Shown here piece by piece: positions 5,708 to 54,872 of a stretch of 64,000 nt of DNA. The translations under genes and the position numbers were made by a program. Each line of letters begins with the position of its first letter. Within the stretch, counting starts at the first letter, position 1. Origin of the DNA: Escherichia coli (GTDB taxonomy: Bacteria > Pseudomonadota > Gammaproteobacteria > Enterobacterales > Enterobacteriaceae). Under the pieces are notes generated by a model, which was not told the DNA's origin, ran no database searches, and worked only from the letters and a program-made list of their open reading frames with translations. The stretch is from assembly GCF_048403405.1 (NCBI RefSeq), contig NZ_CP183129.1; one strand, 5' to 3'.

Positions 5708-6291
5708 TGGCATTCAGAATGAGTGAACAAGCACGGACCATAAAAATTTATAATCTGCTGGCCGGAACTAATGAATTTATTGGTGAAGGTGACGCATATA
5801 TTCCGCCTCATACAGGTCTGCCAGCAAACAGTACCGATATTGCACCACCAGATATTCCTGCTGGCTTTGTGGCTGTTTTCAACAGTGATGAGGCATCGTG
5901 GCATCTCGTTGAAGACCATCGGGGGAAAACGGTTTATGACGTAGCGTCAGGGGACGAGTTATTTATTTCTGAACTCGGTCCGTTACCGGAAAATGTTACC
6001 TGGTTATCGCCGGAAGGGGAGTTTCAGAAGTGGAACGGCACAGCCTGGGTGAAGGATACGGAAGCAGAAAAACTGTTCCGGATCCGGGAGGCGGAAGAAA
6101 CAAAAAACAACCTGATGCAGGTAGCCAGTGAGCATATTGCGCCGCTTCAGGATGCTGCAGATCTGGAAATTGCAACGGAGGAAGAAACCTCATTGCTGGA
6201 AGCCTGGAAAAAGTATCGGGTGTTGCTGAACCGTGTTGATACATCAACTGCACCTGATATTGAGTGGCCTACGAACCCTGTCAGGGAGTAA
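5707..6291 (+). CDS. tfa: Tail fibre assembly protein
   Basis: 194 aa; [38 protein letters not shown] matches lambda Tfa as recalled. Confidence 0.9.
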
Positions 6292-30462: not shown

Positions 30463-31122
30463 ATGGCTAACTGGTTAAATCAACTGCAATCCCTGCTTGG
30501 GCAAAGCAGTTCTTCTGCCTCCTCGTCTGCGGATCAGGGATTGGGCAAACTTTTAGTGCCAGGCGCATTAGGCGGACTGGCTGGGCTGCTGGTCGCAAAT
30601 AAATCAGCACGTAAACTTCTTACGAAATATGGCACCAACGCGTTACTGGTTGGCGGCGGAGCGGTAGCGGGTACGGTGCTGTGGAATAAATACAAAGATA
30701 AAATTCGCGCGGCGCATCAGGACGAACCGCAGTTTGGCGCGCAAAGTACGCCGCTGGATGAGCGTACGGAACGTTTGATCCTTGCGCTGGTCTTTGCCGC
30801 TAAAAGTGATGGTCATATTGATGCCAAAGAACGTGCGGCAATCGATCAGCAATTGCGTGAAGCCGGTGTGGAAGAACAGGGGCGTGTACTCATTGAGCAG
30901 GCAATCGAACAACCGCTGGATCCACAACGCCTGGCTACCGGGATCCGCAATGAAGAAGAGGCGCTGGAAATCTATTTCCTGAGCTGCGCGGCTATTGATA
31001 TTGACCATTTTATGGAACGCAGTTACCTGAATGCACTGGGTGACGCGCTGAAAATCCCCCAGGATGTTCGTGACGGCATTGAACGCGATCTCGAACAGCA
31101 AAAACGTACTTTGGCGGAATAA
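30463..31122 (+). CDS. yebE: Inner-membrane protein YebE (DUF533)
   Basis: 219 aa; position and K-12 synteny. Confidence 0.85.
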
Positions 31123-31214
31123 TTCCGCTCTCAGGATAGCCTGAAGTTGACTATTTCGGGCTATCCAGAACCGCACAGCCATTTGAACAGGCTGATTTTC
31201 TCTGTCTGCATAAC

Positions 31215-31400
31215 ATTCGATATCCGCGCCATTACCTGTCATCATGTGACTGCTCCCCGCCCTGTCGGGCGAGGCTTCCCACTTCTTAAGCCGCAACCGT
31301 CTGTGTGACGGATTTACGCTGGCCTCCATGGGCAGAAACGACGAGTCCCGCCGCTTGTAATTCCAGTATGCCCTTGCGTTTGATGTTGAGCGCCGCGTTG
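31215..31400 (-). ncRNA. Candidate TnpB-associated omega/right-end RNA (inferred, boundaries unknown)
   Basis: By analogy with characterised TnpB systems the guide RNA overlaps the tnpB 3' end and the right-end hairpin; not directly recognisable from sequence. Confidence 0.3.
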
Positions 31401-32455
31401 ATATCGCGGTCATGTTCAACTCCACACTCTGGACACTGCCAGATGCGCTTATGTAATGGCATCTCCGACATTTTGTGACCGCAGCAGTGGCAGGTCTTCG
31501 AACTGGCGAACCATTGATCCAGTTTCACCAGATGCACACCTTTCTCTGTTGCTTTGTATTCCAGTTTTGTGATGAATCCAGACCATCCAGCATCGCCTAT
31601 CGCACGAGCCAGATGGTGATTTTTCATCATATTTGCCGTTTTCAATGTCTCGACAATTACCGCTTGGTTTTCGTCAACAATTGCGCGAGATAACTTGTGC
31701 TGGAAATCGGCACGGGCACTGGCTACCCGTTCGTGAACGGCTGCAAGTTGTATTCTGGCTTTGCGCCTGTTTGCGCTCCCTTTTTTCTTACGGGACAGTG
31801 CTTTCTGCTTCCGGCGCAGGTTGCGACTTGCATTGATTAGGTGGCGGGGACTGGCAATTTTATTGCCGTCCGATTTGATGACAAAATGCGCCAGCCCCAT
31901 ATCCAGCCCTGTCACATTTGATATCAGTGCGGGCTTTGCCGGCGCTTCCATCCCGTCGTCACAGAGTAACGACGCGTAGTATTTCCCGGTTGCGCTGCGG
32001 CTCAACGTGATACTTTTCAGCATTCCCGTAATTTCACGATGTAAACGCGCTTCAATCGGCAAGATTTTCGGTATTTTTATCGCACCATCAAGGACTTTTA
32101 TGCCAACACAATGATAGCTCGATTGTCTGCCGTGTTTACTTTTAAAGGTTGGTTTACCTGCTTTCAGTTTCGGATTGAAAAAGTTAGAAAAAGCCACGTC
32201 GAGGTTAATTACCGCCTGCTGCAACGCAATAGAATCATATTCTTTAAGCCATCCATACCGGCGGGATTTCTTCGCCACTGCAAGCAGTGGTTTGAGGTCT
32301 TTACGCGGGTTTAAATTTACGCGGTGCCGCTGGTAAGAATGTTTCTTGATATGCAGAGCTTTGTTGTACGCAAAACGCACTGCACCGAACTGGGCGTTGA
32401 TAAATTCAGCCTGTTCTGGTGTCGGGTAGATGCGTACTTTTGTTGCTCTTAACAT
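31286..32455 (-). CDS. tnpB: TnpB (OrfB) RNA-guided endonuclease-family protein
   Basis: 389 aa; MLRATKVRIYPTPEQAEFIN N-terminus; C-terminal zinc ribbon CHCCGH...CPECG and RuvC-III-like DRDINAALNI. Confidence 0.9.
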   Translation of the reverse strand: MLRATKVRIYPTPEQAEFINAQFGAVRFAYNKALHIKKHSYQRHRVNLNPRKDLKPLLAVAKKSRRYGWLKEYDSIALQQAVINLDVAFSNFFNPKLKAGKPTFKSKHGRQSSYHCVGIKVLDGAIKIPKILPIEARLHREITGMLKSITLSRSATGKYYASLLCDDGMEAPAKPALISNVTGLDMGLAHFVIKSDGNKIASPRHLINASRNLRRKQKALSRKKKGSANRRKARIQLAAVHERVASARADFQHKLSRAIVDENQAVIVETLKTANMMKNHHLARAIGDAGWSGFITKLEYKATEKGVHLVKLDQWFASSKTCHCCGHKMSEMPLHKRIWQCPECGVEHDRDINAALNIKRKGILELQAAGLVVSAHGGQRKSVTQTVAA

Positions 32456-32511
32456 AATCAGCGCTCATTGATATAATGCTTTTATTTTAACACTTTAGGT
32501 AAATATATCAA

Positions 32512-32937
32512 TTGAGTAATCATGATGATTTACTGGCGGGATTCCTCCGCAAACGACACAGTGTCAGTAAGCTGGTTGTGCACCTTATTTTTACGACAAA
32601 GTATCGACGTAAACTATTCGACAGTCAGATGATCGCTCAGTTGCGTGAGGCTTTTGGCTCCGCTGCGGCAAAGCTTGAATGCGAAATTATTGAGATGGAC
32701 GGGGAGCCAGACCATGTACACCTGCTGGTTGCCTACCCGCCAAAACTGGCGGTCAGTGTGATGGTCAATAATTTAAAATCGGTATCATCACGTTTGCTAC
32801 GCCAGCAGAACGCGCATTTACGTATGCAGAGTAAAACGGGGCTTTTGTGGTCGAGATCGTACTTTGTCTGTAGCACCGGAGAGGCAACGATTGAAACGCT
32901 CAGAGCCTACGTTCAGAGTCAGTCAACACCTGATTGA
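32512..32937 (+). CDS. tnpA: IS200/IS605-family transposase TnpA (HUH/Y1)
   Basis: HUH motif HVHLLVAYPPK and conserved TKYRR; first in-frame start is TTG at 32512, so the start is uncertain. Confidence 0.8.
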   Translation: MSNHDDLLAGFLRKRHSVSKLVVHLIFTTKYRRKLFDSQMIAQLREAFGSAAAKLECEIIEMDGEPDHVHLLVAYPPKLAVSVMVNNLKSVSSRLLRQQNAHLRMQSKTGLLWSRSYFVCSTGEATIETLRAYVQSQSTPD

Positions 32938-33066
32938 TCTTTAAAGCCCTGCGGGCTTTTCGCCTTATATCCCCGCCCGCATTGGGCGAGGGTTTACGGC
33001 GTTTTTCGCTAAGCAATGACTACCCTGTTTCGCTTGCATCTCCGGTGAGTTTTGCCACCCTTATAA

Positions 33067-35813
<2,747 letters not shown>

Positions 35814-38599: not shown

Positions 38600-38900
38600 A
38601 AAAACCGCCTCAGTTCTTTCACCAGAACGGGCGGTTTTTAACATTTAAGCTGATGACCACCGCGCTTTTTATTGACCATTTTGCACGCAAACTGGAAAAC
38701 CTGGCGTCGTCATCTATTCTTAAAGGGCAAGGCATCTAAGCCTGCATTAATGCCAACTTTTAGCGCACGGCTCTCTCCCAAGAGCCATTTCCCTGGACCG
38801 AATACAGGAATCGTGTTCGGTCTCTTTTTATCTGTTAAAAGCCAGAAGCATTCCCTTCGCTGACTTTATAGTCAACCATAACACACACTCTACTGTCTGA
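38600..38900 (-). ncRNA. ryeA: RyeA (SraC) antisense sRNA overlapping SdsR (boundaries approximate)
   Basis: K-12 yebY-pphA intergenic locus encodes this overlapping sRNA pair; strong bidirectional terminator at ~38605..38640. Confidence 0.4.
38727..38829 (+). ncRNA. sdsR: SdsR (RyeB) sigma-S-dependent sRNA
   Basis: Sequence gcaaggc..gcctgcattaatgccaacttttagcgcacggctctctcccaagagccatttccctggaccgaatacaggaatcg.gttcggtctcttttt matches the remembered SdsR sequence; ends in hairpin + T-run. Confidence 0.7.
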
Positions 38901-41789: not shown

Positions 41790-44423
41790 TTATTTGGGCA
41801 GCGCAGTTCCCCATTCACGCCACTCTTTCGGTTCACTTTCCTGCAACAGGAAGTGCTTGCCTTCCTGGGCTTTCGGTGCCAGTGGCGTACCCGGAGGCGT
41901 GGCGAAGGCGATGCCGCCACGGATAAACTGGTTAAAGGTGCCGGTTTTCACTACGCCGCCCGTCAGACCAAAGTCCAGACTATAACCCGATGCCAACCAG
42001 AAGACGGAATTGTTACGCACCAGGTGTTGATAGCGTTTACTGATGCGCATCGCAATCATCACGCGATCTGACAATGTCCCCAGCGTCATACCTGTAACCG
42101 TACCGACTTCCAGACCACGGAACAGCACAGGTGTACCGATGCCTAACGAACCGGCTTCCGGCGCTTCAACAATAATGCTCAAGCCATCCAGGTAACGCGA
42201 ATCAGTAATGGTAGCCTCTTGTAATTCAAAGTCGCGCCGAGGATTGCCCCGGCCTGGTTCGACGTTGATATACGGCTGGAGGATAGTATCAAGATGCTCA
42301 ACGCCAGCTGCCGAAATTTGCGGTGTGACCACTGAGAAGCGCGTACCACCGCGAGCAAAGGTCTGGACATATTCCGGATAGAGCACCGCCTTTGCCTGTA
42401 CTTCATTGCGCGCGGTAATCAGATCCAGCGTCTGGATTTGCCCGATATCAATACCGAGATAGCGAATTGGCATCCCGACCGCCAGTTTTCCGGCATCGAA
42501 AGCGTGAAGCGTAATCTGCCCGCCAACCGCACGGGCTGCTGTTTCGGAAGCATACAGAATACGCTTGTCGCCTTTACGCTGACTGGCGCTGGCACCGCTG
42601 AGGTTATCGAAGCTAATAGCCCCCTTTAATGCTCTGGAGAGCGGGGATGCCTGTACAGTCAGACCACTACCATTCAGCTGAACTTTCGCCCCACCTTCTG
42701 CCCAGAACACGCTGTTGCTGGTCAGAAGGTTGCGATACTCCGGCTTAATATGCAGATCGATATCAAACGCGTTAGCTCGCGGACGCACGGTAATAACTTC
42801 ACCAACTTCAAATTTACGGTACAGCACTACCGATCCTGCCTGCACATCCGGCAGCGTCTCTGCACTCAAACTCACGGTTGTGGTGGGTAAATCGCTAAGG
42901 CTGTTCTCCAGCGCTTTTTCCAGATTGGCATACAGTGGATAGCTGGCTTTCATCTCGCCTTTATCGCCTGGCAGAATACGTATCCCGCCGTTAATCCATT
43001 CTGAGGCGCTGGCACCAAGAAACTCAACGCCATCCAGCCCCACCTTCACGTCGACACGGCTGTTGACGACAAATTTGCTATCGCCTTTTACCAGTTCGCG
43101 ATGCTGAGGCTCGATGGCGACGGTAAAGGTAACGCCTTTGCTGGTGAGTTTACGATCAATAACCTGGCCTACCTGCACGCCGTGAAGAATGAGCGGCTGA
43201 CCAGCATCAATGCCGTAACTTTCTGGTGCTGTCAGGGTCAGTGTCAGAACATCCGGCTCTTGTAGCAGGGCTTTTTCACCTGGCACAACAACGAACTCTT
43301 TGCGTGGCTCGCCATCGCCGGGCACCAACTCAAAGGTTTTTCCGGTCAGCAGGGCGCTGAGATTGGCATCGCTAAGGGATAATTTCGGGTTGCGTAATTC
43401 GATGCGGGTATTTTCACGAAGCAGGGTGACGACGCTGGGATCAACGGTCATTTCCCCAGTGACTTTACCACCAGGATTTAAATCCAGTTTAGTCAGCTGT
43501 CCGACTTCCAGCCCCTGATACATTAACGGCGTCGAGTCGGCGGTTAATCCGGCCCCACTCGGCAGTTCCAGTTTGATTATTACGCCACGCTGGCTATGGG
43601 CCAGGTCTTCATACAGACCAAAGGTATCTTCCGCCTCGGCAGGTTTCGACTCTTCTGGTGAATCGAAGGCAATCGCACCGTTAACCAGTGCCGCCAGACT
43701 TTCCAGTTTCACCTTCGCGCCACTGATACTGACGTTGGCATCAACGCCGGAAACGTTCCAGAAACGGCTACCTTTTTTCACCAGGTCGGTAAAACGCCGC
43801 TCGATCAGGACATCAATCACCACGCCTTGCTTGTTGGGATTGATGGCATAGTCGTAGACTTTTCCCACCGGGATCTTACGGAAATAGACCAATGAACCGC
43901 TGTTCAGTGAACCGAGATCGGGGGCTTGCAGGTGGATCATCAGATCGCCATTGTCCAGCCGATATTTCGGTTGGGTATCGAGTGCGACAAAGTGATCCTG
44001 CTCTTTACCTTTACCTGGCATCATGCCGATATAGTTACCACCGACGAGGGCATCCAGCCCGGAGACACCTGCCAGCGAGGCCTTTGGCGTCACCAGCCAG
44101 AACTGTGTCTCTTCGCGCAGCGCATCTTTCATATCGGACTTGATGCTGACCTTGACTTCAATCTTACGAAGATCGTCGCTCAGGCTGATATCCTGCACAG
44201 TTCCGACTTCAACGCCCTGATAACGAACAGGCGTACGGCCTGGAACAATACCATCCGCCGACATAAAGTCGATGGTGACGGTATTACCCCGGTCCTGATA
44301 ACTATCCCAAATCAGCCAACCGGCAATCATTAGCGCGATGAATGGCAGCAGCCAGAAAGGTGAGATACGGCGTTTATTTTTAATCTGCGCTTCAGTCGTC
44401 GAAGCGGGCGTTTCCTGACTCAT
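41790..44423 (-). CDS. letB: Multi-MCE-domain lipid transport protein LetB (YebT)
   Basis: 877 aa from MSQETPAST; N-terminal TM helix then repeated MCE domains. Confidence 0.9.
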
Positions 44424-53672: not shown

Positions 53673-54341
53673 TCCTTCCTCAATCTTGAGTAACCCCGTC
53701 GTTGAAGGGTTACTCAATTCATCCTGATTATACGCACTGCCATGGTGCAACTGCTTCAAATTAAAACTCTGGTCTGACTTCAAATAATTATCATATTATT
53801 TATTTGCGTAACGGGATATCAGAAAAAGATATTTAGCCCATTAATTTATTAGGATGTTTACATCGGATTTGTGATTAAGTGTGGTATTATTTATTAGCGA
53901 AACGTTTCTCTCTTGATTTTTTTGCGCATTCATCAATTTTTCTTATTTTAAATTTACAATACCTTTGGCGATTGACTTCTCTTTGGGGTGATCGATAGCC
54001 GTTAACTGACTGTTTTATGAGAAAAAGTGATATAACTTTTTATTCATTGCATAGCAGAAAATGTGATATTGCACGCACTATGTAATAACTTCTCCCACTG
54101 GCCTGGAACAACTGAACTTATTGAACTATGTTAGAAAATACGTCAGTTTAAGTATCTGCCTGAACTGGCAAGGTTAAGCACAATGATATATCGGCGCGTA
54201 TTCCGTTGCATAAGTGTGCAAAAAAAGTGGAAGACGTATCGAGATTTGTGCGTCTGATCGAGACATGTTTAAAAATGGCTTGCCATAATTAACGTTGTAT
54301 GTGATAACAGATTTCGGGTTAAACGAGGTACAGTTCTGTTT

Positions 54342-54485
54342 ATGTGTGGCATTTTCAGTAAAGAAGTCCTGAGTAAACACGTTGACGTTGAATACCGCTT
54401 CTCTGCCGAGCCTTATATTGGTGCCTCATGCAGTAATGTGTCAGTTTTATCTATGTTATGCCTGCGGGCGAAGAAAACAATCTAA
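54342..54485 (+). CDS. yobF: Small protein YobF (upstream of cspC)
   Basis: 47 codons ([33 protein letters not shown]...); read manually, not in ORF track. Confidence 0.75.
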
Positions 54486-54497
54486 GGAATTTTTCAA

Positions 54498-54707
54498 ATG
54501 GCAAAGATTAAAGGTCAGGTTAAGTGGTTCAACGAGTCTAAAGGTTTTGGCTTCATTACTCCGGCTGATGGCAGCAAAGACGTGTTCGTACACTTCTCTG
54601 CTATCCAGGGTAATGGTTTCAAAACTCTGGCTGAAGGTCAGAACGTTGAGTTCGAAATTCAGGACGGTCAGAAAGGTCCGGCAGCTGTTAACGTAACAGC
54701 TATCTGA
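54498..54707 (+). CDS. cspC: Cold-shock-domain protein CspC
   Basis: 69 aa; RNP1-like KGFGFI and VFVHF. Confidence 0.95.
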
Positions 54708-54753
54708 TCGAATCCACTGATCTGAAGTGTGAATACGCTTCAATCTCGCTATA

Positions 54754-54780
54754 AAGCCTCGTCGAATGCGAGGCTTTTTA
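54754..54780 (+). terminator. Intrinsic terminator after cspC
   Basis: GCCTCG-N6-GCGAGGC followed by TTTTT. Confidence 0.65.
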
Positions 54781-54872
54781 CTTTGCTTTATCTTCGCTCC
54801 AGTCGTTCGGATATTTGCCCGCCGCGTGATTCGCGTTACACTTGCGGCCTTTAGTATCCTGCCGGAGTTGTC

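Follow-up and report, generated by a model that had tools for sequence, protein, structure and literature searches.

A probable ISDra2-type omega-RNA gene overlapping the 3' end of tnpB in the insertion sequence ISEc46 of Escherichia coli

The analysis indicated that the minus strand at positions 31246-31356 of the window, the 64,000-nucleotide stretch of DNA studied here, is very probably the scaffold of an ISDra2-type omega-RNA (reRNA) of the ISEc46 TnpB protein, and that the next 16-20 bases of the flank would serve as its guide. An earlier note on this DNA had proposed a tnpB-sense RNA that overlaps the 3' end of tnpB, crosses the right-end hairpin and derives its guide from the yebE side, and every available sequence-level test supported that proposal. 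The support comes from the exact boundary of the transposon, the homology and architecture shared with ISDra2, covarying stems, suppressed synonymous change and the intact residues of TnpB. The putative RNA is encoded on the sense strand of tnpB, covers the last part of the gene and stops at the right end of the transposon; its four covarying stems map onto those described in PMC10097598, and the triad and zinc finger of the partner TnpB are intact.

The window belongs to an Escherichia coli chromosome and has the gene order purT-yebG-yebF-yebE, the insertion, then ptrB; K-12 MG1655 has the same gene neighbourhood without the insertion. Alignment of the K-12 empty site (...cattacctgtcatcat|ctaagcaatgact...) to the window placed the insertion exactly at 31246..33008, without a target duplication. 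In RefSeq, an identical locus is labelled "RNA-guided endonuclease InsQ/TnpB family protein" (minus) and "IS200/IS605-like element ISEc46 family transposase" (plus). The features of the element are the following:

31246..33008, minus strand: ISEc46 (IS200/IS605 family), 1,763 bp, delimited by the K-12 empty-site comparison and named from the RefSeq label on the identical locus
32512..32937, plus strand: tnpA, a 141-aa Y1/HUH transposase, divergent from tnpB
31286..32455, minus strand: tnpB, a 389-aa RNA-guided endonuclease, stop codon at 31286-31288
32484..32511, minus strand: sigma-70-like promoter predicted for tnpB and the omega-RNA precursor from 10/12 consensus matches, TTGATA-16-TAAAAT
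33009..33012, minus strand: target site and putative TAM, TTAG (CTTAG here), abutting the left end
32971..33008, minus strand: left end, with 17 nt CGAAAAACGCCGTAAAC ending in the DNA guide AAAC (32992-32995)
32971-32991, minus strand: left-end hairpin (IPL), after the 17-nt left-end segment
31275-31278, minus strand: presumed DNA guide GAAG for the right cleavage site, by the IS608 rule
31255..31274, minus strand: right-end subterminal hairpin (IPR), CCUCGCCC-GACA-GGGCGGGG, G+C-rich, which is also stem 4 of the putative RNA
31246..31249, minus strand: right cleavage site TCAC, where homology stops in 24 relatives, read by the IS608 rule

The 24 independent relatives are located on plasmids and in genomes of Serratia, Photorhabdus, Xenorhabdus, Klebsiella, Kluyvera, Pluralibacter, Arsenophonus and Salmonella. 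In all of them, homology ended exactly after ...GAGCAGTCAC / ...GCAGTCAC|flank, and the flanks beyond were unrelated. The right end, which the earlier note had put downstream of tnpB, was kept there, at 31246, by both the K-12 alignment and the 24 relatives, and neither mapped it elsewhere. Kluyvera and Pluralibacter (L020, L023) contain near-identical copies of the element at other sites, which indicates recent mobility. The same yebE-ptrB insertion with the same flanks was also observed in a 1,960-bp contig labelled Collinsella sp. MAG (L010), which is probably a binning contaminant in a metagenome-assembled genome.

The element has the characteristics of the IS200/IS605 family, namely a Y1 HUH transposase, hairpins on one strand, a specific motif 5' of the insertion and no target duplication. 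The tetranucleotide AAAC located 5' of the left hairpin foot is complementary, position by position, to TTAG, as AAAG is to TTAC in IS608. At the right end TCAC would pair in the same manner with GAAG, by comparison with the right-end guide of IS608. The same imperfect hairpin is present at both ends; its plus-strand sequence is CCCCGCCC-loop-GGGCGAGG (31255-31274 and 32971-32991), and its mismatch becomes a G.T wobble when read on the minus strand. As DNA, the right-end hairpin is the predicted binding site of TnpA.

On the minus strand, 17 nt separate the foot of the left hairpin from the cleavage point on its 5' side, and the right cleavage point follows its hairpin foot after 9 nt. The cleavage of Helicobacter pylori IS608 is similarly asymmetric, with 19 nt on the left and 10 nt on the right (PMC3201880), and this resemblance identifies the minus strand of ISEc46 as the "top" strand, with the left end at 33008 and the right end at 31246. 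The two elements also share the Y1 enzyme, the absence of a target duplication, both subterminal hairpins on one strand and a four-base DNA guide 5' of each hairpin. They differ in the target tetranucleotide and in the divergent genes of ISEc46; in addition, the TnpB of IS608 has been reported as inactive in interference assays (PMC10055086).

The protein products of both genes were assigned to known families. The tnpA product scored 141.8 bits against NCBIfam transpos_IS200 (cut-off 55) and TnpB scored 342 bits against guided_TnpB (cut-off 100), with a Pfam assignment that was likewise to standard TnpB. Comparison of TnpB with ISDra2 TnpB (PDB 8H1J/8EXA) gave E = 3.6e-74 at 40% identity; D185, E269 and D351 aligned with the catalytic D191, E278 and D361 of ISDra2, and the CxxC...CxxC zinc finger was kept (C322/C325/C341/C344), as in ISDra2. 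By this alignment, both the RuvC D-E-D triad and the zinc finger of ISEc46 TnpB are intact.

The region between tnpA and tnpB (32449-32511) contains interleaved divergent sigma-70-like promoters. The plus-strand promoter is TTAACA-17-TATAAT and the minus-strand one TTGATA-16-TAAAAT, and in both cases the -35 box falls within the beginning of the opposite gene. This arrangement suggests mutually exclusive binding of RNA polymerase. A terminator scan downstream of the guide found no intrinsic terminator; thus, formation of the 3' end of the RNA would have to depend on trimming. An inverted repeat (TCAGGATAGCCTGAA / TTCGGGCTATCCAGA) at 31131-31169, directly past the yebE stop codon, looks like a yebE terminator stem, and the scan did not call it on either strand. 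Omega-RNA precursors that read through would cross this repeat in antisense.

The secondary structure of the putative RNA was derived with RNAalifold and explicit pair counting on an alignment of 23 enterobacterial relatives. The elements of the predicted RNA are listed below:

31246..31356, minus strand: omega-RNA scaffold, positions -111 to -1, 111 nt, with stems 1-4 and a candidate pseudoknot
31336..31356, minus strand: stem 1, AAGCGGCG / CGUCGUUU, with two invariant G.U pairs and the loop GGACU
31344..31347, minus strand: 5' strand of the candidate pseudoknot, GACU (-102..-99), inside the stem-1 loop and able to pair with 31248-31251
31278..31332, minus strand: stem 2, CCCAU (31328-31332) with GUGGG (31278-31282), enclosing stem 3
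31288..31325, minus strand: stem 3a, 31317-31325 with 31288-31295
31307-31311 with 31297-31301, minus strand: apical stem 3b, CCGUC with GACGG
31255..31274, minus strand: stem 4, the right-end hairpin given above
31248..31251, minus strand: 3' strand of the candidate pseudoknot, AGUC (-6..-3), directly upstream of the guide
31230..31245, minus strand: putative guide segment, 16 nt, ATGATGACAGGTAATG, the first flank bases past the right end (to 31226 if 20 nt)

The helix cells of this model were paired in 98.3% of cases among the 23 enterobacterial relatives, compared with 36-50% when the partners were slid by 1-3 columns. Six pairs carried compensatory changes, and the one-sided changes were C-to-U substitutions leading to U.G pairs. 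In stem 3, which reads AGGCC.GCG...CCGUC-ACACA-GACGG...UGC.GGCUU, a G-C pair was replaced by A-U in four sequences (3a) and a C-G pair by U-A in five (3b); the tnpB stop codon UAA is located at the base of stem 3a, with its U paired. In stem 4, a C-G pair was replaced by G-C in 10 sequences. Its loop, GACA at -21..-18, is UUUA in the Photorhabdus-type relatives, which is the ISDra2 tetraloop. Stem 2 was 100% paired in the 23 relatives, with C-to-U changes giving U.G.

A wider alignment of 41 distinct sequences, which included other phyla, showed double changes in 26 of the 34 pairs and 95.4% of cells paired, figures that favour the structure because the alignment was fitted to a covariance model. 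In this alignment, compensatory changes were present in 6/8 pairs of stem 1 and 4/5 pairs of stem 2. The minimum-energy fold of the 112-nt minus-strand RNA of the window coincided with the consensus structure (z = -2.69), whereas the plus strand gave z = -0.19. The invariant G.U pairs are specific to the tnpB-sense strand and become C.A mismatches on the other; the plus strand was rejected as the structured one on both grounds.

A pseudoknot between GACU and AGUC is likely. In the 23 relatives, 92% of its cells were paired; two pairs were invariant, and each of the other two was present in 19-20 of the 23 sequences. The middle A-U pair was broken (U.U) in 3/23 relatives, namely L017, L019 and L007. 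Across clades, GGACU occurs with GUC (ISEc46-type and several others) and GGAAU with UUC (ISDra2-type), and this alternation of GAC:GUC with GAA:UUC, seen by inspection and not in aligned columns, is consistent with covariation of the pseudoknot. The pseudoknot is rated as likely and not as established because of the broken middle pair and because the clade alternation was noted by inspection only. RNAalifold also proposed a long-range helix in which the tail GCAGUCA pairs with UGGC..UGU at about -195. This helix was rejected: the codons under its 5' strand, for Trp (TGG) and Cys (TGY), are themselves strongly constrained, no compensatory change was seen in it, it competes with the pseudoknot and it is outside the 116-nt functional scaffold of ISDra2.

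The constraint on the overlapping tnpB codons was in line with an RNA function. The last ~115 nt before the right end were almost invariant in the 23 enterobacterial relatives, whereas the coding sequence upstream showed third-position drift. In 11 full-length relatives with TnpB identities of 68-89%, synonymous codon diversity was 0.14 under the scaffold (18 scoreable codons) versus 0.39 upstream (272 codons; Mann-Whitney p = 7e-6). By these measures, purifying selection acts on the scaffold in genera ranging from Escherichia to Photorhabdus.

A covariance model (R1) built from the enterobacterial alignment matched the window once, on the minus strand at 31246-31365 (E about 1e-34). Full-length matches to R1 abutted the 3' ends of tnpB in distant relatives with TnpB identities of only 28-50%, including five Deinococcus loci (L037, L039, L041, L044, L066), Chloroflexi, Geobacteraceae, Aquificota and cyanobacteria. 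Under the same numbering, Deinococcus L037 and L066 have 26/29 and 27/29, respectively, of the omega-RNA nucleotides that the ISDra2 cryo-EM study names, which identifies both as ISDra2-type omega-RNAs. Inspection against the published numbering placed GGAAU of these two loci in the stem-1 loop, like GGACU in ISEc46. The automatic R1 alignment of the Deinococcus sequences, in which stem 1 was deleted and GGAAU fell in unpaired 5' columns, was not used for the covariation of the pseudoknot.

The earlier note had also called for a search with TnpB omega-RNA families, which came back empty: Rfam 15 gave no omega-RNA family match either in the whole window at the gathering threshold or in 31000-33200 at E <= 10. 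By the gathering threshold, the ISEc46 RNA is not a member of the TnpB-linked families RF03065, RF02998 or the sotRNAs. We did not take this as refuting the omega-RNA because the Rfam TnpB models are narrow and reportedly cover only a small subset of omega-RNAs (PMC10055086). The Halobacterium sotRNAs (Rfam RF02656 and relatives) overlap tnpB 3' ends in sense and resemble the ISEc46 RNA in position and strand relative to tnpB; they differ in that the match was at chance level (sot0042, 11.7 bits, E = 5.6, threshold 88) and covered the right-end hairpin alone (31255-31274, minus strand). Other Rfam matches in the window at the gathering threshold were unrelated, namely IS009, STnc490, RyeA/SdsR and the cspA thermoregulator (6050-6248, 20813-20936, 38689-38833 and 54322-54782).

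The guide is predicted to begin with the first base past the right end. The 24 relatives share ...GCAGTCAC and then diverge completely, and the guide sequence differs at each insertion site. The earlier note had placed the guide at 31215..31234, about 11 nt off; since the right end is 31246, the span runs from 31245 to 31230 for a length of 16 nt, which was borrowed from ISDra2 (PMC8612924). Its range for the 3' end of the transcript, near 31215..31235, includes 31230.

The left-end flanks of independent insertions terminated in TTTAG in five cases and otherwise in ATTAG or CTTAG. The TnpA target doubles as the TAM of TnpB in ISDra2 and the Geobacillus elements (PMC8612924, PMC10055086), and on this basis we infer TTAG as the TAM of ISEc46 TnpB. 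The empty site CTTAG|ATGATGACAGGTAATGGCGCG, i.e., CTTAG followed by 21 matching bases, is present in K-12, O157:H7 and O25:H1. The target suggested in the earlier note was a sequence resembling the flank of the element itself; its origin from the flank was borne out, while mere resemblance understates the match, which is to the exact un-inserted allele in these three strains. The presumed target of the TnpB complex is thus the un-inserted yebE-ptrB allele, i.e., the donor joint, with the TAM (C)TTAG followed by ATGATGACAGGTAATG (CTTAG-ATGATGACAGGTAATGGCGC). The occupied locus would be protected because GTCAC, and not TTAG, precedes the flank. No other TAM-flanked match to the guide was found within the window; the best off-target there (44009-44024, two mismatches) was discarded, being preceded by TCGGC and not TTAG. 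An 80-nt probe over the empty joint was contiguous in 5,025 of 5,426 complete E. coli genomes (about 93%); about 398 lacked the contiguous joint, and 448 hold a copy of ISEc46.

Relatives of the element were also observed on plasmids. An ISEc46-like tnpB without tnpA but with its own left and right ends and omega-RNA scaffold is present in Klebsiella pneumoniae pKPNH54.2 (L004, 518-1853) and in L003 and L005; in all three, it is flanked by psiA and ardA in the leading region of conjugative plasmids of the IncI/IncK type. The left end of this relative adjoins TCAG, and its DNA guide is GAAC; in ISEc46 these are TTAG and AAAC. The reconstructed empty joint of this relative was contiguous in none of the PLSDB plasmids, while 1,891 matched one or both halves of the joint, and most of those sampled carried both halves apart. 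The absence of a contiguous empty joint from PLSDB suggests that the plasmid insertion is fixed and that its guide is without a target in the database. The idea that these relatives serve as weapons against competitor plasmids lacking the insertion was dropped for the same reason.

Three further plasmid arrangements were noted. Plasmid pRK1 of E. coli W (L008, 1501-1666) contains an orphan right-end/omega-RNA fragment of 166 nt, without tnpB, adjoining the pilV shufflon. An E. albertii plasmid (L009, 1501-1538) contains an orphan hairpin and tail of 38 nt, 100% identical to the window and also without tnpB; this piece lies about 300 nt upstream of hokD and was present on at least four plasmids among the sampled matches. 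In K. pneumoniae pKp_Goe_579-1 (L007, 786-1989 and 2321-3489), two convergent tnpB genes are arranged tail to tail about 330 nt apart, each with its own match to the omega-RNA model.

Among the alternatives to a working guide RNA, the one that survives best is a module that is present and apparently intact and yet not expressed, or without catalytic activity, in its host, i.e., a passenger without a present effect on retention. We consider this improbable. The promoter evidence is a consensus match only, and the TnpB of H. pylori IS608 was inactive in assays where other orthologues worked (PMC10055086), so an intact-looking protein is not necessarily an active one. In addition, the alleles bearing the insertion are all at least 99% identical, and simple vertical descent could account for the occupancy of the site. 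On the other hand, three observations argue against an inert passenger: the scaffold is kept by purifying selection in different genera (98% of cells paired, synonymous change suppressed), all catalytic and zinc-binding residues are retained, and near-identical copies are located elsewhere in Kluyvera and Pluralibacter.

It is less probable still that the conserved 3' region is a right end at the DNA level only, a cis site for TnpA that does not give rise to a functional guide RNA. A Y1 transposase requires exactly these DNA elements, a hairpin (31255-31274), a cleavage site (TCAC) and a guide (GAAG), and the covariation of stem 4 suits a DNA hairpin equally well. However, conservation and covariation reach 111 nt into tnpB, over three further stems, whereas the right-end substrates of IS608 shown to be functional were only 45-56 nt long (PMC3201880). 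An RNA helix accommodates the invariant or tolerated G.U pairs of stems 1-3 stably, and on the opposite strand they would turn into C.A mismatches. The architecture, moreover, is that of the ISDra2 omega-RNA bound to TnpB, and synonymous sites are suppressed over the whole scaffold. A domesticated, nuclease-dead RNA-guided regulator (TldR-like), or a read-through RNA acting as an antisense regulator of yebE, can be discounted almost entirely: the guide and any read-through RNA would be antisense to the yebE 3' untranslated region, and the domestication of TnpB into transcription factors is documented (PMC10705468), but tnpA and both transposon ends are present, the guide changes with every insertion site as in a mobile element and not a fixed regulator, and the intact catalytic triad together with this complete transposon context excludes ISEc46 TnpB as a TldR.

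The omega-RNA of ISEc46 would be closest in design to that of Deinococcus radiodurans ISDra2 (PMC8612924; cryo-EM, PMC10097598), which likewise overlaps the 3' end of tnpB on the same strand and stops at the right end. The ISDra2 RNA has a 116-nt scaffold with stems 1-4, a pseudoknot between -105..-103 and -5..-3 and a UUUA tetraloop at -20..-17 (PMC10097598). The predicted ISEc46 RNA has the same order of stems, a candidate pseudoknot strand in the stem-1 loop, the right-end hairpin as stem 4, a tetraloop at about -20..-17 and a scaffold of comparable length (111 nt), and its guide also begins right past the right end. The differences are the TAM/target (TTGAT in ISDra2, putatively TTAG in ISEc46), the pseudoknot (GAA:UUC versus GACU:AGUC), the stem-1 loop, which is about 9 nt in L037 and 11 nt in L066 of the ISDra2 type versus 5 nt in ISEc46, and the orientation of the genes. 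The genes tnpA and tnpB are co-directional and overlapping in ISDra2, whereas they are divergent in ISEc46.

In the proposed mechanism, for which we infer the transcript, its ends, TTAG as the TAM and the cleavage, transcription would start at the tnpB promoter (about 32484-32511) or within the gene and proceed through the 3' end of tnpB and the right end into the yebE-side flank. TnpB would bind the scaffold through stems 1-4 and the pseudoknot of the stem-1 loop with -6..-3, and the RNA would be trimmed to about 130 nt. The complex would then recognise TTAG followed by ATGATGACAGGTAATG, a target that is absent from the occupied locus, would be recreated as the donor joint by TnpA excision and is naturally present in un-inserted chromosomes. 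A cut at the empty site would force repair from a copy bearing the element, and the insertion would be retained or copied back. The predicted function is thus that of ISDra2 and ISGst, to cut the donor joint or a naive allele and to restore or spread the element by recombination, for which there is mechanistic precedent (PMC8612924, PMC10055086). As in the TnpB/IscB of Geobacillus stearothermophilus ISGst (PMC10055086), the guide is predicted to be the right-end flank and the TAM the TnpA target at the left end, and cutting of the scarless donor joint would keep the transposon. ISGst TnpB belongs to another clade and host, and the donor joint of ISEc46 was recognised in natural empty-site genomes and not in excision assays.

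A role of the TnpB-omegaRNA complex as an allele-specific drive or barrier within E. coli, beyond sister-chromatid repair, is conceivable because a fixed guide and TAM match a site that about 93% of complete E. coli genomes carry uninterrupted; we regard it as a speculative and rather unlikely extension. If it held, incoming empty yebE-ptrB alleles would be cut and the insertion shielded from being recombined away, and an element arriving by conjugation or transduction could cut the empty site of its recipient and home in.

The literature found on ISEc46 consisted only of resistance or mobile-element listings and chance string matches, and none of it dealt with its TnpB or RNA. The present analysis provides an exact map, including the ends, scaffold, guide, putative TAM and natural target, for an element that has been annotated only as a transposase and a TnpB. 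The omega-RNA gene of ISEc46 was uncharted until now; the type of system is well known, and the current understanding of TnpB systems is unchanged by it. ISEc46 would add a TnpB with a short putative TAM, TTAG. An ISDra2-type guide RNA gene is probably carried by about 7% of complete E. coli genomes and aimed at a site that most of the others carry. With such a gene resident in E. coli and its target in most other strains, ISEc46 would be a convenient native system for tests of TnpB-dependent retention and homing.
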